Origin: Thermodesulfobacteriota bacterium
GTDB lineage: Bacteria; Desulfobacterota_D; UBA1144; Nemesobacterales; Mycalebacteriaceae
DNA length: 64,000 nt
Direction of reading: 5' to 3'
Assembly: GCA_965198945.1 (NCBI GenBank)
Contig: CBDAQI010000013.1
Location: 191,160 to 255,159 of the forward strand
The position numbers and the translations under genes were made by a program. A model generated the notes under the pieces. It was not told the DNA's origin. It did no database searches and was given only the letters and a program-made list of their open reading frames with translations. This document shows positions 44,052 through 52,622 of this stretch, in pieces (position 1 is the first letter of the stretch; each line of letters starts with the position of its first letter).

Positions 44052-45422
44052 TTGCCGGCGGGGTTATTCGGCACGGACGGGATACGGGGAATTTCCGGTC
44101 TTTTTCCTGTAGATAAAAGGGGCGCCGGCAAAATCGGTTCGGCGATTGCCCGAGTTTTTTTGAAAAAAGGGGGAGAGTCGCGCGTTGTTATCGGGAGAGA
44201 CACGAGAAAGCGCGGAAAAACACTTCAGGAAAACCTCTGCGGAGGACTTATGTCCGGCGGAGCAAAAACCGTTTGTGCGGGAATCTGCCCCACCCCCGCC
44301 ATTGTATCCCTGCTTCTTGAACAAAAAGCGGATGCCGGAATCATGATTTCCGCCTCACATAACCCTCCCGAATACAACGGCTTCAAAATATTTAATTCCA
44401 AAGGGTTCAAGATTGACAGGAATGTGGAAACCGAGATTGAAAACGTTTTTGAAGAATTGAAAGACGCTCCCGCTCTTGAGAGCTCGGAAAGAAAAGTGGC
44501 GGAAAATTCCGCATGGCGTCAAATATACTCTTGCTCTCTTGAGTCATCCGTTTGCGGGAAGCGAAATCTTTCGGGAATAAAAATCGCTCTTGACTGTGGA
44601 AACGGAGCGATGTTTGAAATCGCGCCGGAGGTTTTTGAAAAAACCGGCGCACAACTCTCACATACAGGTCGGGAACCTGACGGTGAAAACATAAACAAGG
44701 GCTGCGGAAGCCTTGAAACCGGGCGGTTGGCGGAAGATGTGAAAAAAAACGGCGCGTTTCTCGGAGCCGCACTTGACGGAGACGGAGACAGAGTCACTTT
44801 CTGCGATGAAAACGGAAATGAGGTGGACGGAGACAGAATAATAGCTCTTTTCGCGCGCGAAATGCTGGAAAACGGAACATTGAAAAAACCATGTGTCGTA
44901 ACAACTGTTATGAGCAACAAGGGACTTGAACTGTTTTTTGAAAAAAATGGAATACATATGCTCAGAACCGATGTGGGAGACAGAAATGTGGCGGAAGCAA
45001 TGAAAAGGGAAAATATCAATTTAGGGGGTGAAAAATCGGGACACCTGATTTTTTCCGACCATTCAACAAACGGAGACGGTTTGCTTGCAGCCCTTTTTGT
45101 CGCGGACATTGTAAAAAGAAAAAATAAACCTCTTTCACAAATCCTGCCGGAATTTGAGATGTTTCCGCAAATTCTAAAAAATGTCCGGGTTTCCCGAAGA
45201 AAGGAGTTTGAGCTGATATCAGGTCTTCCGGAAACTGTTGCAAAACTTGAGAAACAGCTTGGAAAAGGCGGAAGAATCCATCTCCGTTATTCCGGAACGG
45301 AACCGCTTGCGAGAATTCTTGTTGAGGGAGCGTCTCAAAATTCTGTTGAAAAAACGGTCGATGAGATCTCAGCCGTTATTGAAAGTTCAGTTGGAGAAAA
45401 AAGTGGCGGAACTCAATGTTAA
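44052..45422 (+). CDS. glmM: Phosphoglucosamine mutase
   Basis: FGTDGIRG, ISASHNP, DGDGDR, GGEKSGH, RYSGTEP. Confidence 0.96.
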   Translation: MPAGLFGTDGIRGISGLFPVDKRGAGKIGSAIARVFLKKGGESRVVIGRDTRKRGKTLQENLCGGLMSGGAKTVCAGICPTPAIVSLLLEQKADAGIMISASHNPPEYNGFKIFNSKGFKIDRNVETEIENVFEELKDAPALESSERKVAENSAWRQIYSCSLESSVCGKRNLSGIKIALDCGNGAMFEIAPEVFEKTGAQLSHTGREPDGENINKGCGSLETGRLAEDVKKNGAFLGAALDGDGDRVTFCDENGNEVDGDRIIALFAREMLENGTLKKPCVVTTVMSNKGLELFFEKNGIHMLRTDVGDRNVAEAMKRENINLGGEKSGHLIFSDHSTNGDGLLAALFVADIVKRKNKPLSQILPEFEMFPQILKNVRVSRRKEFELISGLPETVAKLEKQLGKGGRIHLRYSGTEPLARILVEGASQNSVEKTVDEISAVIESSVGEKSGGTQC

Positions 45423-46116
45423 CATAGACCACATAGCGACAATCAGACAGGCACGGGGCGGAACGGAACCGTCTCCCGTAAAAGCCGCACTTGTGGCTGA
45501 GAAAGCGGGAGCGTCGGGTATTGTCGCACACTTGAGGGAAGACAGACGGCATATAAGCGATAAAGACCTTTACGAACTGAAAAAATCCATTAGTACAAAA
45601 TTGAATATGGAAATGGCGGCAACCAATGAAATGGTTGAAATAGCTCTGTCGGTCTCTCCCCATATGGCGACTCTTGTGCCCGAAAAAAGAGAGGAATTAA
45701 CAACCGAAAACGGTCTTGAAATATCAGGGAATCAGGAGCGGATAAAAAATGTGATTTCCGTGCTTTCGGAAAAAGGCATAGAGGTGAGTCTGTTTATAGA
45801 CCCGAGTTTTGAGCAGATAGAAGCTGCGGCGGACATAGGAGCAAAATGGGTTGAAATACACACGGGAGGGTTCGCGGAAGATTCTCCGGATCAGGACAGG
45901 GAAAAAGAATTTGAACTTATAAAAAATTCGGTTTTATATGCGCTGGATCTTAAACTGCATGTTTCCGCCGGGCACGGTCTTGACTATACGAATGCGGGTA
46001 TTATCTCATCAATAAAAGGCGTTGAGGAATTGAACATAGGGTATTCAATAGTTTCAAGGGCGGTTTTTGACGGCATGGAACGTGCGGTGAAAGACATGAT
46101 TGAGGTGATGGGTTAA
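45403..46116 (+). CDS. pdxJ: Pyridoxine 5'-phosphate synthase
   Basis: Start re-assigned to GTG 45403; LNVNIDHIATIRQAR, HLREDRRHI, AGHGL, ELNIG. Confidence 0.95.
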   Translation: MAELNVNIDHIATIRQARGGTEPSPVKAALVAEKAGASGIVAHLREDRRHISDKDLYELKKSISTKLNMEMAATNEMVEIALSVSPHMATLVPEKREELTTENGLEISGNQERIKNVISVLSEKGIEVSLFIDPSFEQIEAAADIGAKWVEIHTGGFAEDSPDQDREKEFELIKNSVLYALDLKLHVSAGHGLDYTNAGIISSIKGVEELNIGYSIVSRAVFDGMERAVKDMIEVMG

Positions 46117-46195
46117 GAGACCGGTTAGACAGCGGAATCGCCCGGAGTTTTTCGTCCTTTCAATTTATTCATAAATTTTTGACAAAAATAAGAGA

Positions 46196-46464
46196 CCGGA
46201 TTTCCACGAGATTTTGTCACCGTTGAAAGATTGCACCCATGGGGGTGGGGCAGAATCCCCGGTCCCGTAATTCCTATAGCCCAATAGGCACTATTGCATC
46301 TCTCTCGTCATTCCTATACCCCGATAGGAACTATTGTATCTCTCTCGTCATTCCCGTTTCTTCTCCGTCATTCCCGCATCCTCTCCCCTGTCATTCCCGT
46401 GGAAACGGGAATCCAGTATTCCGACAAATTTCTGTCATAAACCTCGGATTCCGTGTCAGGCAGA
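46196..46464. repeat. Palindromic repeat cluster 1 (CGTC/dRS3-type)
   Basis: Five GT(C/A)ATTCC starts at 46266, 46306, 46346, 46366, 46389; full unit GTCATTCCCGTGGAAACGGGAATCCAGTATTCCGACAA at 46390-46427. Confidence 0.9.
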
Positions 46465-46568
46465 TAATTACAGGGGGCAAGTTGGCCGTTTTTTAATTCA
46501 ACAACCGGTTCATTTCTCATCAGCAACCCTCTTAAACACAGCTTTTTATCTTTTTTTCATATTTTTAG

Positions 46569-46629
46569 TTGCCAACAAAAACAGTTTTTCCCTATAACAG
46601 TGCATAACCAAAATTTAATTCATAGGAGG
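46569..46629 (+). promoter_or_regulatory. Promoter and RBS of island gene 1
   Basis: TTGCCA-18 nt-TATAAC, AGGAGG at 46624-46629. Confidence 0.55.
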
Positions 46630-46637
46630 ATAATACT

Positions 46638-47777
46638 ATGGGAACAAATTGGAAACTAAACAGTGTGTTTAACGGCGATGTGGAATTGTCCAAGGAAGAC
46701 ACTTACTACAATGTGGGCAGCTACGCGGTTCCACAAGACAGGATGCTGCTTATTACGGCGCGATTGAAATACACGCTGTTTGATCCTATCTCCAGAGGAC
46801 TGCCCTTCCCGGTAAAGACACAGACCTTTGCTGGTATGGTTTCGTCCAACTTTCTAAGGGAAGGAGGGGTTAGATACCTGGAGCTAGAATGCGGGCAGTT
46901 CAAAATATCGAGAGCGGTTTTGCGTGATTTTGACACGAAACTTGTGGTAAAAACTGAAGGAAGTGGCCATCAGTTGCAGATTGCAAAATGCTGTGAGGCG
47001 TCTGATGATTCAAAAGAGGAGGGAGGTTCTGTTGATGAGTGCCGGGAGACTGAAAAAAAGAAGAAAGTTCCGGGCGTGTTTAGAGAGGATCGTATCTCTT
47101 TTATTCCAACCAGCGATATAGAGGTGGAGATTTCTGAGGTTAAATCGGACCTTGCCGATGGGGAGGTAACAAACCCGAAGATTGCAGATGGGGCTGTTAA
47201 TACATCCAAACTTGCCGATGCGGCTGTTACTGCAGATCAAATTGCTGACCTTACAATAACACGGGAAAAATTGGCGTTTCGCATAAACGGTGCTGAGCCG
47301 GGGCGTAACACTATTCGTCCATACCATTTTCACGATTCAAAAGAGGTAACCAGACTAATATGCGAACCCATTTTGTTATATTCATCATCAAATAATTCTC
47401 ACACAACAAATGAAATAGTAACTCTGTCAGAACCAATTTTTAATTTTACTGATGTGGAGTTTTGCATCCGCACATCAGGGGGTGATGGCGCATATAATGG
47501 ATTGAATGCGGGCAAGGTTAGTGTGGGATGTGTTTTGCAGTCGGGAACATCAAACGGTTCCGGTCTTCTTCTTGTATCAGACCAAAATGGTCGACATGGA
47601 GAGGATAGGATTGAAATCAGGCGTGTTACATCATCAAACAACACTCGTTGGCGAATAATTAGGGAACAAGCGGGAGGGAGTTCTCCAACATTCCGCACAG
47701 TATCAGTTCGCGGGTTTCATCGCATTGCGGGGAACTATACCCGGGCTGAGCTTGATTTAATCAACGGGGGTAATTAG
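46638..47777 (+). CDS. Orphan phage tail-fibre/receptor-binding-like protein with (L/I)ADxxVTxxK decapeptide repeats
   Basis: LADGEVTNPK-IADGAVNTSK-LADAAVTADQ-IADLTITREK (47151-47276); C-terminal LLYSS...IVTLSEPIFNFTDVEF resembles fibre head motifs; strong RBS. Confidence 0.6.
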   Translation: MGTNWKLNSVFNGDVELSKEDTYYNVGSYAVPQDRMLLITARLKYTLFDPISRGLPFPVKTQTFAGMVSSNFLREGGVRYLELECGQFKISRAVLRDFDTKLVVKTEGSGHQLQIAKCCEASDDSKEEGGSVDECRETEKKKKVPGVFREDRISFIPTSDIEVEISEVKSDLADGEVTNPKIADGAVNTSKLADAAVTADQIADLTITREKLAFRINGAEPGRNTIRPYHFHDSKEVTRLICEPILLYSSSNNSHTTNEIVTLSEPIFNFTDVEFCIRTSGGDGAYNGLNAGKVSVGCVLQSGTSNGSGLLLVSDQNGRHGEDRIEIRRVTSSNNTRWRIIREQAGGSSPTFRTVSVRGFHRIAGNYTRAELDLINGGN

Positions 47778-47826
47778 CAGCATAGCTAATCCAATCTTCT
47801 GAAAATGTGAGGAATTAGTTCTGTAG

Positions 47827-47863
47827 AAATTGAACGGGGAGTTTTTGCCTCCCCCTTCAATTT
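47827..47863 (+). terminator. Hairpin terminator after island gene 1
   Basis: AAATTGAA-c-GGGGAG loop CTCCCC-c-TTCAATTT followed by ATTC. Confidence 0.6.
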
Positions 47864-47896
47864 ATTCGGGCAGTTTTGTTTTTATCAAATAAAGAG

Positions 47897-48012
47897 ACTG
47901 GATTCCCACTTTCGTGGGAATGACGGGACAGAGCAATTTTTTGTGTTTCTCTGTCATTCCCTTGAAAACGGGAATCCAGTATTCCGACAAGTCCTTTCAT
48001 AAAAGCCGGATT
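47897..48012. repeat. Palindromic repeat cluster 2 (back-to-back pair)
   Basis: Reverse unit ACTGGATTCCCACTTTCGTGGGAATGACG (47897-47925) and forward unit GTCATTCCCTTGAAAACGGGAATCCAGTATTCCGACAA (47953-47990). Confidence 0.92.
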
Positions 48013-48065
48013 TTGAAAAAGCCCTTTATTCACATAAACTTTTTTTCAGGCAGCGGTTTTTCAAA

Positions 48066-50092
48066 ATGTCAAGGTTAGCGGTTGTATTGATTCTGGTTTT
48101 CCTCACCGCCGGTTGCGCCAGTTCGGGAGGAGGCGGAGAAATTTCTCTGAGACCGCCGCCACCTGCAGAAAGAATAATGGTGCAACTGTCTGCACAATCA
48201 TCTGTGGCAAGTCTCGCTCGCATTCCAGGAGTTGACGGAGAGGTCAACATTCAGCCACTTCCTCCAAAAAGTTTTGTGCCATTGCCAAAGCCTGTGAGGC
48301 TGCCCAAGTCTTCCCCGATGTTGAGAAGACCCATGAAACGGGGAACTCCCAATCCCGTAGTGTCGGTTGACCCGCCTGAGAGTTTTGTGCCGTTGCCGGA
48401 GCCTGTGAGGGTGCCCAAGTCAAGGGCTTCAATTATAAGTCATTGTGAAAATGTAAGGGGTTTTGACGACACAGCAGGTGTGACATTATGCAACCGTGCG
48501 AGAATACCGGGACTTATCCCTCTTTATAATCTTGTCTCGGCTGATATTGACAGAAAAATAGCCAACAAAGAAACAATAGAGAAAATCGGGGTGGTAATTG
48601 ATGTAGGCGATCACGGCAGGGCAGTGTTTAGGACAGCAGAAATTGCCACCAGGAAGGAACTACTTCAATATTTTGATGCGCCTGGTTCTTTTCAAATAGC
48701 ACAAAAGTTTAGAACAGAAGTAGCTGCCGGAAGCATAGTCAACATTTCTTTTGGAGGAATTTTTGTAACATCAGCATTATCATCAGTGAGGTCCAGGATT
48801 AGCCCTCAGGATGTGCGGATGTCCCGCTCTCTTCTTCTCTTACCTACCGGCAATTTCGAAGGGCCTGAACCTGCGCAAAGCCGGCAAGCTCTCAGAGAGA
48901 TTCATGCTTTGCCGGATGTGAACAACGCCGGTTCTGTTCTTCTGGTTGCGGGACTCACACAGAATAAAGCATTCCCGCTGACAGACGGAAACGGTTTTCA
49001 CAAAGGATACAGAGCCGTTCCTACCGATGGTATTCCTTTCCTTCAATACATCCGGACTCAAACCGTTGCGGAAGCGCGGCGGATTACTGTGTGACTGCAC
49101 CATACAGAGTTTATACAACAGTAAAAAACAGCAGACCTGTTTCAGCAAGGCGGTTTTTGCACGATGAATTCAATTATAAGGAGGGCACAAGTTTTTCCAC
49201 CCCCATTGTTATGGGCACACTTGTAAACCTGCGCTATGAGTGGCCTCATCTTACAAACCAGCAACTTGTAAAGCTCGCCTGCGTAACTGCAGTAGACCTT
49301 GGAGATCCGGGAAATGACCCCGTCTACGGTTGCGGTCAATTCTCCGTCTCAGCCATCTGGCTCCCCACGGGAGATCTTGTTGACCCAGCTGAATTGCTTC
49401 CCGTTGCCCGGGGCGACATAGCCGTATCCGGAGCATCTGTATCCGAACCCGTTGTCGTAAAGGGCTATGAAAACAACGAGTTTGCAAGAGACTATGAAAT
49501 TTCAGTTCCCCTTTCCGCTTCATCTTCTTCCCTGCGCATAGAACCGTCTGTCTCCTGGAACAGTATAAAAAGCATGATTGACTTCCGCGATTCGGGTTAT
49601 CTGTCAGTCCCCGTTGTGGACGGAGGAAGCGCCGCTCATCTTTTCAAAGGAGCTTTCTTCTTCATGAACGGGCAATACGGAGTGGGCAGAGCGGGCATAT
49701 CGCACACGAGCGGATTTTCCGTTGCATTTGAAAGAGAGACGGATTCTTTTTTCGGCAGTGTTGGCAGCGGTTCCTATAGATTCGGAGACACGAACAAGGT
49801 GATAGCGTCATTTGACAGGTATTTCGGGTTGGGCGACACATATGGGATAGGAGTGGGAGCTGCTGCGGCATATGGAGAGGTTGATCCCGTGTATTCACTG
49901 ATTAAATCAGCGAGGGGACATGCGCAGACGGCGCGAGTGTCATTTATGAGGCGGAAGAAGAATTTTGATGTCGGTGTGGAGTTTAACTACAGCACGGGGT
50001 TGAAGGGAGACATAACGGTTCAGAACAGGAACTATGAGTTGAATCCCGCTGATGAAAAGGGTGTTTTGTTTACAATGAGGTTTGTGATGTAG
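48066..50092 (+). pseudogene. Lipoprotein S8 subtilase with Pro-rich linker and beta-rich C-terminal domain, split by a 2-nt frameshift at 49088-49094
   Basis: Lipobox LTAGC; ORF1 has VVIDVG, DHGRAV, IVNISFG, PTGN; ORF2 has TAPY, EGTSFSTPIV, AVDLGDPGNDPVYGCG; deleting one TG from (TG)3 fuses ITV-TAPY. Confidence 0.78.
48261..48421 (+). repeat. Intragenic 50-bp duplication encoding PP(K/E)SFVPLP(K/E)PVR(L/V)PKS
   Basis: Copies at 48261-48310 and 48372-48421, 42/50 identical by manual alignment. Confidence 0.9.
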
Positions 50093-50125
50093 GGGATGCT
50101 TTTCTCTTCATTTCTGCATTTTCTC

Positions 50126-50888
50126 TGTCATTCCCAATTCTTTCCCCGTCATTCCCCTTTCTCCCGTCATTCCCGTGGAAACGGGAATCCAGTATTCCGA
50201 CAAGTCCTGCCATAAACCCTCGGATTCCGTGTCAGAGGCAGAATGACTTGAAGGGAGAAATAGCATCTTCGCCTAAGCGCAAATGGAAATACGGACAACA
50301 CAAAAGCGGATTCTAAGTTTTTTATCTGCATACACTTTTGGCGATTGCAAAAACATTTAATTCAATGCCGGATTATGTGTCTCACACAGAATAGCTAATA
50401 ATGAAAACAATGATGCTCTGTCATTTCTAATACTGGATTCCCGTTTCCACGGGAATGACGAGAGCGAGAAAAGACGATTCTGTTTAGTTCCGTATTTTCT
50501 CTTTCATTCCCCTGAAAGATTGTCCCTGTGAAAACGGGTGGGAATCGTGGGCAATGCAGCAAATGACACTCAACAAAGGCAATGTTGTCTGCCGGTGGAG
50601 AGAAAACGACAACAAAGCAACTCTTTATTCAAAAACAACTTTGTGTCTGCGCCCCGGAGAACAGACAGAACAAAACGCTCCACTTTGGTGTTACAACTGA
50701 CTTTCTACAATGTGTTTAATAAATACTGGATTCCCGCCCCCGTTTCCACGGGGACATGCTTTCATGAGGACAAGCTTTCACGGAAATGACGGAGAGGGAT
50801 AGAAAAAAACTTAAAAAGAGAACAAGGAAATCCAGTATTCCGGCAAAATCCACCATAAACTCAGATTGTATACCAAACACGGAATGGC
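50126..50888. repeat. Palindromic repeat cluster 3
   Basis: Three GTCATTCCC starts ending in a full unit 50165-50203; perfect 32-bp inverse copy 50429-50460; nested units 50504-50546 and 50722-50791; degenerate forward unit 50826-50888. Confidence 0.9.
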
Positions 50889-50979
50889 TAATAACATAAA
50901 AAATGATTTCTTGTAAAAAGTAAGATTTTGCTCTCTTTTTCCATCTTTGCAGACATTAGAATATAATCCCAAAGGCAAT

Positions 50980-51357
50980 ATGATAATAGGAATTGGAACC
51001 GACATTGTGGAAAATTCCAGAATTGAATCAGTCATTTCACGACACGGAGACAGATTCATGGAACGGCTTTTCTCCAAAACTGAAAGAAACCACTTTCTCA
51101 AATTCAACTCATCGGTCCAAAGTATCGCCGCTTCATTTGCCGCGAAAGAAGCTTTTGTGAAAGCCCTTGGAACCGGTTTCAGATACGGTATTTCTTTTTC
51201 TGACATGGAAATTATCAGAGACTCGCGCGGAAAACCGTTTATTAAACTTTCGGGCAAGGCGGAAGATTTCTTCCGGAAAATGGGAGCAGGGCACATACAC
51301 CTTTCAATGTCGCACGAAAAATCACACAGTGTGGCCGTTGTGGTGCTTGAATCCTGA
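50980..51357 (+). CDS. acpS: Holo-ACP synthase
   Basis: ATG 50980: MIIGIGTDIVE, FAAKEAFVKALGTG, GKP, SMSHE; TATAAT 12 nt upstream. Confidence 0.95.
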   Translation: MIIGIGTDIVENSRIESVISRHGDRFMERLFSKTERNHFLKFNSSVQSIAASFAAKEAFVKALGTGFRYGISFSDMEIIRDSRGKPFIKLSGKAEDFFRKMGAGHIHLSMSHEKSHSVAVVVLES

Positions 51358-52622
51358 TGAGTCCCCAAAACCCGCTTGATTATCTTGACTCTCTCAGTCA
51401 GCACACCGTTAAACCCGGACTTGAAAGAATATCAAACATTCTGAATGCCGCCGGCAATCCCCACCTGTCGCCAAACACCGTTGTTATAGCGGGAACAAAC
51501 GGAAAAACATCAACCGCGTCCATGCTTTCGGAAATCCTGATTTCATGCGGTTTTACAACGGGTCTTTATACTTCGCCCCACCTTGTCCGGGTCGGAGAGA
51601 GAATAAAGATAAACGGCAAACCAATAAGCGATTCCTATCTGGGAAATTTGATTGACAGAGTTCGCATAATTTCCGGGGACGGCAAAATAAAAGCGAGTTA
51701 TTTTGAGACCGTCACCGCCGCCGCCTTCATATCGTTCCACGAAAAAAATGTTGATTTTGCAGTCATGGAAACCGGAATGGGTGGGAGGTGGGACGCCGTA
51801 AACGCGGCGCGCCCCACGGTGTGCGCCATAACAAATGTTTCCATGGACCACATTCAATATCTGGGTGATACGCCGGAAAAAATAGCAGCTGAAAAAGCGG
51901 GAATAGCAAAGAAAAAAGTTCCTCTTGTAACGGCCGCAGAGGGAAATGCCCTGAAGGTGATTGAAAAAAAATGTTCGGAGAAAAAAACCCCTCTTTTGAA
52001 AATTAAAAGAGACTTTAATTGTCTGCAAACCGCACGGGAAGTTTTTTCATATTCCGGTCGGTCGTGGAATATTAAAAACATCCGCCTTGGCATGGCAGGC
52101 GGCTTTCAGATAAAAAACGCATGTCTGGCCCTTGCTTGTGCGGAGATCATTTCCGGACGCGGCTTTGATATTAATCCGGAACAAGCAAAACAGGCTCTTG
52201 AAAAAACCCGTGTCGGAGCAAGAATGGAATACACGAGAGTATCCCCTCCCCTTATTATAGACGGCGCTCATAATTCGGAATCAGCCCGCTGTCTTACGCT
52301 GTCAATAATGGAAAATCATCCCTCGGAAAAGTTTGTTTTTATAATAGCCATGTCAAATGATAAAAATCCGAAAGAATTTTTCAAACACATAGAACCGGTT
52401 TGCCGGCGCCTTATACTCACCCGCTCACAAAGCCTGAAAGGTGAGAGACCGGAAACACTTATGAAATTAGCGCCCGTGAGCATTGAAGCCGAAATTGCGG
52501 AAACAACGGAAGAAGCGTTGAAAACAGCCTTGAAAACAGCCCTTCCCTGCTGTGTTACCGGTTCATTGTATTTTGCGGGAGATGTAAAAAAACTTTTTGA
52601 AAACGGCTCAATCAAGATTTAG
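51357..52622 (+). CDS. folC: Folylpolyglutamate synthase/dihydrofolate synthase
   Basis: AGTNGKTS, YTSPHL, ETGMGGRWDAVN, DGAHN, GSLYF. Confidence 0.95.
   Translation: MSPQNPLDYLDSLSQHTVKPGLERISNILNAAGNPHLSPNTVVIAGTNGKTSTASMLSEILISCGFTTGLYTSPHLVRVGERIKINGKPISDSYLGNLIDRVRIISGDGKIKASYFETVTAAAFISFHEKNVDFAVMETGMGGRWDAVNAARPTVCAITNVSMDHIQYLGDTPEKIAAEKAGIAKKKVPLVTAAEGNALKVIEKKCSEKKTPLLKIKRDFNCLQTAREVFSYSGRSWNIKNIRLGMAGGFQIKNACLALACAEIISGRGFDINPEQAKQALEKTRVGARMEYTRVSPPLIIDGAHNSESARCLTLSIMENHPSEKFVFIIAMSNDKNPKEFFKHIEPVCRRLILTRSQSLKGERPETLMKLAPVSIEAEIAETTEEALKTALKTALPCCVTGSLYFAGDVKKLFENGSIKI

Follow-up and report, generated by a model that had tools for sequence, protein, structure and literature searches.

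A lineage-specific mosaic island of surface-type gene families and CGTC-1 repeats between pdxJ and acpS in a small marine bacterial genome

In Neisseria, palindromes termed dRS3 (ATTCCCNNNNNNNNGGGAAT) flank RS repeats of 50-150 bp and so define what are called neisserial intergenic mosaic elements (NIMEs), and the accessible part of the study describing them links arrays of NIMEs to divergent surface genes, proposes homologous or site-specific recombination, including a dRS3-specific recombinase, and states that such arrays were unobserved outside Neisseria (Bentley et al., 2007; PMC1797815). A later survey assigns dRS3 to the CGTC-1 family of repetitive extragenic palindromes (REPs), which is defined by a CGTC tag (sometimes TGTC or CCTC), an 8-bp stem starting with AT, a loop of 4 nt and a tail reading CCA. 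The accessible text of that survey describes the Neisseria members as clustered in mosaic intergenic regions, places REPs mainly downstream of coding regions, associates CGTC REPs with no dedicated transposase in any species, and reports CGTC-1 from five phyla, the present lineage not being among those shown (Di Nocera et al., 2013; PMC3733652). Here we analyze a stretch of 64,000 nucleotides, hereafter the window, from the Thermodesulfobacteriota bacterium assembly GCA_965198945.1 (contig CBDAQI010000013.1, positions 191,160 to 255,159), in which repeats of this kind and two long genes, here named A and B, occupy the interval between pdxJ and acpS.

The interval is a lineage-specific mosaic island, in which members of two multi-copy, fast-diverging surface-type gene families are interleaved with CGTC-1 REPs and other short repeats. 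We consider it probable that the island is NIME-like and arose when dispersed modules of repeats and genes recombined through their homology. It measures 4863 bp (46117-50979), the pdxJ open reading frame (ORF) ending at 46116 and the acpS ATG starting at 50980. The genome (G000 in our set; 1.387 Mb in 14 contigs designated by C numbers, 95% complete, the window locus lying on C13) was the one genome of its species compared, and PdxJ was searched for in 30 relatives, of which 29 loci were examined with 1.5-kb flanks. That pdxJ and acpS are normally adjacent, as had been stated in an earlier annotation of the window (the sequence-only reading), was borne out, since their spacing is 12-24 bp in all five congeners, each of which carries glmM-pdxJ-acpS-folC contiguously. 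Across the 29 loci, acpS lies 8-257 bp from pdxJ in 23, while in the remaining six acpS was below the detection threshold and folC follows about 0.65-1.1 kb after pdxJ. The distance from pdxJ to folC is thus at most about 1.1 kb in these loci compared to 5.2 kb here, and against every relative examined the interval stands out as an insertion. It separates acpS-folC from pdxJ; a TTTCCA-18-TATAAT motif, a consensus match only, lies at the right end of the island (50938-50967), 13 nt before the acpS ATG.

The island and its flanks contain the following features, given in window coordinates with the strand (unstranded where none applies).

45238-46116, plus strand: pdxJ, the left flank, with the PdxJ domain from about 45412 (Pfam PdxJ, E 3e-94).
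46117-46238, plus strand: left end of the island; 46156-46181 is 77% like the segment 47853-47878 behind gene A (family D14), and the segment as a whole is unique in the genome.
46263-46342, plus strand: two tandem 40-bp units with the variant palindrome ATTCC-TATAG/C, 85% identical (D7) and found nowhere else in the genome.
46343-46389, plus strand: left-arm half-sites GTCATTCC, about 21 nt apart, before core 1 (repeat families D1 and D2).
46390-46460, plus strand: unit copy 1, a CGTC-1/dRS3-type REP core with conserved tail (palindrome 46393-46412, tag TGTC, tail CCA).
46461-46637, plus strand: upstream module common to the gene-A paralogs, with TTGCCA (46569-46574), an 18-nt spacer, TATAAC (46593-46598) and an AGGAGG ribosome-binding site.
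46638-47777, plus strand: gene A, 379 aa, which combines an orphan domain at the N-terminus with a repeat of tail-fibre type (residues 166-215) and a C-terminal part that is unique.
47836-47854, unstranded: terminator-like hairpin after gene A, from a consensus scan; on C5 and C6 the gene-A copies have similar segments behind them.
47897-47983, unstranded: head-to-head REP dimer of an inverted core (47897-47924) and the core of unit copy 2 (47953-47983; pair I6).
48066-50092, plus strand: gene B, a subtilisin-like S8 peptidase with a lipoprotein signal (Pfam S8; ORFs 48066-49094 and 49091-50092).
50093-50247, plus strand: half-sites and unit copy 3 (core 50166-50196, palindrome 50169-50188).
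50429-50468, minus strand: inverted core, separated by 232 nt from copy 3, to which it is 97% complementary (pair I2).
50722-50800, unstranded: variant palindrome joined to a right core arm (50722-50760), then the repeat R2 (50738-50800; I12-I14, I21-I22).
50826-50886, plus strand: degenerate unit copy 4, consisting of right arm and tail only, the left arm missing, with no hairpin (D3).
50980-51357, plus strand: acpS, the right flank (Pfam ACPS, E 1.7e-21).

An indication of how the island arose comes from comparing it with the rest of its own genome, which holds further copies of the two cargo genes and of most of the non-coding sequence. The three gene-B copies have unalignable 5' halves and become 100% identical from a Gly-Thr-Ser motif onward. 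Window positions 49184-50247 equal C4:38614-37551 over 1064 bp without a difference, 49184-50762 is 97.7% identical to C10:40862-39293 (100% over most of its length), and 49938-50247 equals C11:29442-29751 at 100%, so that tracts of 1.0-1.4 kb common to two other loci stand at 100% identity beside unalignable sequence. Past 50247, the C4 and C11 loci lead into a gene-A paralog, and the window and C10 into a common non-coding segment. The tracts end inside gene B, in the unit tail (50247) and in R2 (50762), none of them at a palindrome. Perfect tracts beside unalignable sequence, with their ends in shared modules, are a hallmark of recent events of gene conversion or ectopic homologous recombination.

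Gene A shows a similar mosaic structure. The genome holds eight paralogous gene-A loci (C13, C4, C5, C6 and four on C11), in which the N-terminus is conserved, the number of tail-fibre repeats varies and the C-termini are unrelated; two paralogs are 99.6% identical over 904 nt and divergent after. The upstream module was delimited by aligning the eight paralogous upstream regions, its promoter being predicted from sequence, and it is 96% identical to C11:24064-23887. In six of the eight paralogs a core and unit lie upstream and form the 5' edge of a module of about 250 bp, homology between the loci starting at or just before the core. The unit of 60-75 bp is therefore mostly the leading part of a gene module that was duplicated, and not the independent cassette border that it had been taken to be.

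The protein itself has no Pfam or NCBIfam match. Residues 172-213 match the PHROGs family phrog_892 (tail fiber) at E 2.4e-8, and some paralogs do so far more strongly (1e-41), the match being confined to a short repeat motif of 45 residues and not extending to full-length tail-fibre similarity. All gene-A paralogs are flanked by housekeeping genes, and the 95%-complete genome gave no match to the phage families tail sheath, Baseplate_J or HK97 capsid; hence 'tail-fibre-like' refers to a motif and not to a phage context. In a search of 5.8 billion proteins the N-terminal domain (about 165 residues) was covered only by paralogs from its own genome, it was found in none of the 30 relatives, and its best score in the ESM Atlas was 0.77, below lead level. 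No N-terminal signal peptide was apparent by eye, and an AlphaFold2 model from the eight-paralog alignment reached a mean predicted local distance difference test (pLDDT) score of 36.8, too poor for a fold search.

Gene B is frameshifted between 49010 and 49040, as located by the frame switch in tblastn, and the window copy is probably a pseudogene. Contigs of k=31 k-mers (Logan) were available for four public runs from two samples of one study, possibly including the source sample, and contigs of all four runs match the frameshift site without difference, so that a slip confined to the assembly is not the cause. Intact paralogs are found on C4 (627 aa) and C10. The model of the C4 protein has a predicted subtilisin fold (residues 64-360, pLDDT 80-95; Foldseek matches to subtilisins, E around 3e-8), and D123, H129, N208 and S327 are invariant in 10 homologous sequences, so that the modelled fold and the Asp/His/Ser triad point to a Peptidase S8, of which the window copy is a frameshifted version. 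The C-terminal domain of about 230 residues is modelled at pLDDT below 35 (residues 393-626). Among the congeners, G005 carries five copies of gene B and G001 a single one, and G002-G004 lack the gene; the C4 locus and one G005 locus share an upstream aminotransferase gene, and C4 may be the ancestral gene-B site. In run X3, the contig with the 5' half of gene B (48002-49213) had a depth of 29 compared to 12.4 for the gene-A contig (46914-48031) and 12.6-14.4 for the flanks, and the X3 contigs break just after unit copy 2. This gene-B type may occur in another context as well in the X3 sample, contig depth being a poor measure.

The repeat that separates these genes belongs to the CGTC-1 REP family, known as dRS3 in Neisseria. 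The palindrome ATTCCC-N8-GGGAAT occurs five times in the window, all within 46393-50456, against 0.4 expected, and the 21-mer GGGAATCCAGTATTCCGACAA lies on the plus strand at 46407, 47970 and 50183 with no mismatch and at 50826 with two, while shuffles expect none. This agrees with the four same-orientation units that the sequence-only reading had placed at 46390, 47953, 50166 and, degenerate, 50826; likewise, the 38 bp it gave as shared by copies 1 and 3 are identical (46390-46427 and 50166-50203, family D4), and the copies head gene A, the subtilase gene B, a non-coding stretch and acpS as described. The inverted cores, the half-site arrays, the repeat R2, the tandem 40-bp units, the frameshift in gene B and the multi-copy nature of the cargo had all been missed. 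Copies 1 and 3 are preceded by one to three extra half-sites GTCATTCC about 20 and 40 nt ahead. As RNA, copy 1 is predicted to form a hairpin of -13.7 kcal/mol, and the dimer at 47897-47983, folded as a whole stretch, one of -48 kcal/mol (z -6.9). Plus-strand cores lie 3' of genes, namely 270 nt after pdxJ, about 175 nt after gene A and 74 nt after gene B. Short spacers of 28 and 232 bp separate some cores of the interval, most other inter-core spaces being genes of 1.5-2.2 kb. The accompanying repeat R2 has 15 matches genome-wide including the window copy (e.g., C10:5928, C10:19387, C5:30155 and C11:62231); it is centred on a CCCCGT-GGAA-ACGGGG palindrome and is sometimes fused to the right arm of CGTC-1 (50722-50760, C11:24120).

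Under a relaxed definition (ATTCCCxx/xxGGGAAT, 7 or more of the 8 positions paired), 38 cores are present in the genome, against 0-2 in 20 shuffles. Every core has an 8-bp stem starting with AT and a 4-nt loop, mostly GGAA, GAAA, GTAA or GCAA, and among the 35 that could be oriented the tag is CGTC in 29, TGTC in four and AGTC in two, and the 3' tail CCA in 27 and CCG in six. The cores occupy about 20 places, distributed over 9 of the 14 contigs, and are absent from most intergenic spaces; a scatter through most of these spaces with no link to variable cargo had been named beforehand as evidence against an exchange locus. Half-sites GTCATTCC occur on the tag side of 16 of the 35 oriented cores, one to three at a time at about 20 and 40 nt, compared to 0.04 expected per 90 nt; repeated events may have left these half-sites as scars, or they might be iterons that bind a protein or products of slippage. 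Besides genes A and B, cores on C10 (5778, 6018 and 6147) and C12 (146911) adjoin three ORFs of the YadA-like trimeric-autotransporter type (C10:6321-14561, 2746 aa; C12:139888-144789, 1633 aa; C12:146720-147940, 406 aa), which are large adhesin-type genes for a 1.39-Mb genome. The small contig C9 (4779 bp) carries six cores at 1939-2494 and five ORFs without a Pfam match.

Across genomes, the copy number of the core is patchy even between relatives. The strict pattern GTCATTCCC-N8-GGGAATCC, with 30 copies here, is present in 22 of the 120 genomes of a phylum sample that includes this one, and apart from this genome more than 10 strict copies are found only in G036 (66 in 4.0 Mb) and G002 (13, in one array). 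The 30 strict cores in 1.39 Mb represent the highest core density of the phylum sample and coincide with the sole expansion of gene A. In the congener G002, 14 cores lie within 2 kb (G002:C1:1388717-1390698), with an identical loop (GCGCAGGC) in the 13 strict matches; this array, between an Eco57I-type restriction-modification gene with an AAA ATPase and pgk/gap, is classically NIME-like and has no cargo gene. In these relatives cores lie between variable or paralogous genes, which in G005 are TMEM260-like paralogs and one gene-B copy. Further afield, the extended core with tail CCAGTATT was found in at least 120 stretches from genomes whose labels span many phyla, and the core is therefore a cosmopolitan, known element. 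Among the matches listed, the 24 specified bases of CGTCATTCCC-N8-GGGAATCCAGTATT are present without a difference in genomes labelled as Nitrospinota, Desulfobacterales, Planctomycetes, Aminicenantes, Accumulibacter, Coxiellaceae, Saccharibacteria and a metagenome-assembled genome of Micrarchaeota, a striking breadth for a 32-nt element without a known mobilising enzyme.

The resemblance to dRS3 and NIMEs, which the sequence-only reading had pointed to, was confirmed in that the core has every one of the CGTC-1 features listed above, that is the tag, stem, loop and tail, as well as head-to-head dimers, the lack of a flanking transposase and the patchy copy number. The tandem left-arm half-sites at about 21-nt spacing set the cores described here apart, as the accessible text of PMC3733652 contains no such feature. 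With NIME arrays the island shares the 20-bp consensus ATTCCC-N8-GGGAAT and the lack of a recombinase gene among the ORFs scanned. It partly resembles them in the interleaving of cores with other repeat families (five exact dRS3 cores with R2, half-sites and tandem 40-mers in the interval) and in a position next to variable genes of cell-surface type for which exchange of adjacent genes is inferred. Cores lie beside gene A at six of eight loci, beside gene B and beside the three YadA-like genes, and the tract ends are near palindromes and not within them. In contrast to Neisseria, the genome has 38 cores rather than hundreds, they are mostly separated by whole genes and not by RS elements of 50-150 bp, no Nf-type phage or IS110/Piv-type gene was found here, and the host belongs to another phylum (homologue labels Dadabacteria/Thermodesulfobacteriota).

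Most likely, the island was built, and continues to be remodelled, by homology-dependent recombination and gene conversion between scattered paralogous modules, in the mode that has been proposed for the NIME arrays of Neisseria. Around tbpB of Neisseria, breakpoints of recombination are reported to cluster in REP arrays. The modules concerned would be the REP with its half-sites, the promoter module of gene A, the conserved 5' part of gene A, the conserved 3' part of gene B, and R2. RecA-type recombination would have made the identical tracts, the repeats would act as portable homology, and the outcome would be variation of surface-type proteins. Exogenous DNA may also contribute; a ComEC homologue is encoded in the genome, and DNA uptake is therefore conceivable. 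The ComEC match (C1:162074-162909) comes in two pieces in different open frames, which may be another frameshift or slip. The minimal mobile elements of Neisseria likewise hold varied cargo between a conserved housekeeping pair, its exchange being attributed to homologous recombination after DNA uptake; the pdxJ-acpS island shares the position of its cargo with them and differs in that no alternative cargo was seen at this junction, one genome of the species being compared.

As an exchange locus, the interval had been proposed to work through homologous recombination, which fits the 100%-identical tracts, or through integron-like cassette exchange, for which we found no support. An integron-like array would consist of promoterless cassettes, each ending in a recombination site, captured serially by a dedicated integrase, and four units in one orientation, each heading a gene-sized segment of lineage-specific cargo, do recall such an arrangement. 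However, gene A has its own promoter-like module and there is no single common promoter, the tracts do not end at the site, and neither IntI nor attI/attC-type sites were found. Integron attC sites have R''-L''/L'-R' arms and extrahelical bases; the unit here is a simple REP hairpin with a perfect 20-bp palindrome, is not attC-like when judged by these features rather than by a model comparison, and also occurs inverted and in housekeeping spacers. The two tyrosine recombinases (PF00589) of the genome are best matched by models of XerC (277.7 bits) and of XerD/tyrosine recombinase, the integron-integrase models score 114.6 and 80.4 bits on them, far below the cut-off of 265, and neither gene adjoins the island, so that we give an integron origin almost no credence. 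The alternative of an enzyme acting in trans, either a Y1 transposase similar to the REP-associated tyrosine transposases (RAYTs) or an unrecognised one, would have its cuts made at the CGTC tag and segments bounded by REPs, gene cassettes among them, transferred into other REP sites. It could draw on the conserved unpaired tag of the cores, as in RAYT substrates, on the long REPIN-like hairpins that the head-to-head dimers give, on the inverted cores that bracket gene A (pair I4), on the tag-side half-site arrays at 16 of 35 cores if these are scars of repeated events, and on the dRS3-specific recombinase proposed in the accessible part of Bentley et al. (2007; PMC1797815). As in the REPIN/RAYT systems described in the accessible parts of PMC3337134, PMC2817692 and PMC5581495, inverted REP pairs fold into long hairpins and a single-copy, vertically inherited Y1 transposase-like gene exists, whereas the tag here is CGTC and not GTAG and the gene is neither flanked by the repeat nor co-varying with it. 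This Y1_Tnp gene (C11:6417-7259, minus strand, 281 aa, with a C-terminal helix-turn-helix) scores 75.8 bits with the NCBIfam model 'REP-associated tyrosine transposase', just below its cut-off of 80, and is flanked by cytochrome c maturation genes on one side and purD on the other. Four of five congeners have a single conserved copy, and the gene is multi-copy in G017 (11 matches). No core was found around it (C11:5421-8651). Of the 31 genomes compared, this one included, the gene is carried by 5 of the 7 with cores and by 16 of the 24 that lack them, G001 and G003 among the latter; we therefore found no support for it as a mobiliser of the repeat. The absence of an integrase or transposase from the interval, as previously noted, holds by Pfam for its two long ORFs, the short ORFs not having been scanned, and among the 147 ORFs scanned of 167 called in 15 repeat-bearing regions no recombinase other than the RAYT-like gene was found. 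IS110 (DEDD domain) and resolvase families were not found in the 95%-complete genome, DDE transposase families not having been searched; an IS110/Piv or RAYT gene flanked by the repeat elsewhere, which the sequence-only reading had suggested looking for, was thus not found. Since, in addition, the accessible text of PMC3733652 associates no transposase with CGTC REPs in any species, the identity tracts end away from the palindromes and sequence inspection revealed no evident target-site duplication beside cores, we consider a trans-acting enzyme unlikely.

Conversely, the REPs might be bystanders, that is 3'-end RNA hairpins or terminators riding along with duplicated modules, the island having arisen by a few duplications or foreign insertions through gene-internal homology or illegitimate joining. 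Their stable hairpins, the location of each plus-strand core downstream of a gene, where REPs mainly lie according to the accessible text of PMC3733652, the cores in cargo-free intergenic spaces and the tract ends inside gene B would all suit this account. It is hard to reconcile with homology of the gene-A loci starting at or just before the core in six of eight paralogs, with two tract ends in repeat modules (the unit tail at 50247 and R2 at 50762), and with the highest core density of the phylum sample coinciding with the sole gene-A expansion, and we therefore regard it as improbable. There is only a slight chance that the island or its internal order is a chimera produced by the assembler walking through dispersed repeats. 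The k=31 contigs of the four runs are indeed interrupted at every core as well as in the conserved parts of genes A and B, and the differing X3 depths of the gene-B 5' half (29) and gene A (12.4) could be read in this way. However, both island junctions are covered without a difference, by one record of run X1 that extends from pdxJ 300 bp into the island, to 46419 (record 1), and by another spanning 50754-51400, from 225 bp inside the island into acpS (record 8), and a third (record 3, 3281 nt) links gene A, the dimer, gene B and core 3, while a contig with pdxJ directly joined to acpS was not seen. Because all runs stem from a single study, perhaps with the source sample among them, they do not support the assembly independently; short joints with sides of 27-46 nt were also listed, are expected from dispersed repeats and were not used as evidence.

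Several observations weigh against homology-driven recombination between repeat and gene modules as the origin of the island, or limit its reach. Cores also lie in about nine plain housekeeping spacers without cargo, and their link to variable genes is therefore an enrichment and not a rule; part of this enrichment is moreover non-independent because the unit is copied along with the gene-A module. In G005 cores are near one of five gene-B copies, and none is near the single copy of G001. The k=31 contigs break at exact repeats of 1.0-1.6 kb, which are resolved by the original assembly only, and among these contigs, in which rare variants are invisible, there was neither one joining pdxJ to acpS nor an empty-site or circular junction. 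Searching public metagenome contigs with the pdxJ 3' end and with the 21-mer unit gave no match in either case, and thus no sister strain. No population-level variant of the locus and no mobility of the island was observed, and recombination is deduced solely from patterns of identity.

A more far-reaching proposal is that the locus represents programmed variation of the Neisseria type outside Neisseria, in which REPs, half-site arrays and the promoter module actively seed, copy and reshuffle the two gene families into housekeeping junctions, perhaps helped by a trans enzyme acting on the CGTC hairpin. We regard this as possible, although rather doubtful; if true, CGTC REPs would be general recombination organisers of surface variation across many phyla. 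The repeat family as such is already known, catalogued and cosmopolitan; new are the lineage, the half-site arrays and the orphan gene family of eight copies. NIME arrays were once described as a hallmark of Neisseria, and here the same core, with the same apparent job of bordering variable surface-type genes, is found in a marine lineage that is uncultured and has a very small genome, suggesting that gene exchange assisted by REP arrays is more general than thought. With 38 cores and eight plus three paralogs, this genome offers a compact test system, in which a 'streamlined' planktonic bacterium nonetheless invests in an expanding orphan gene family.

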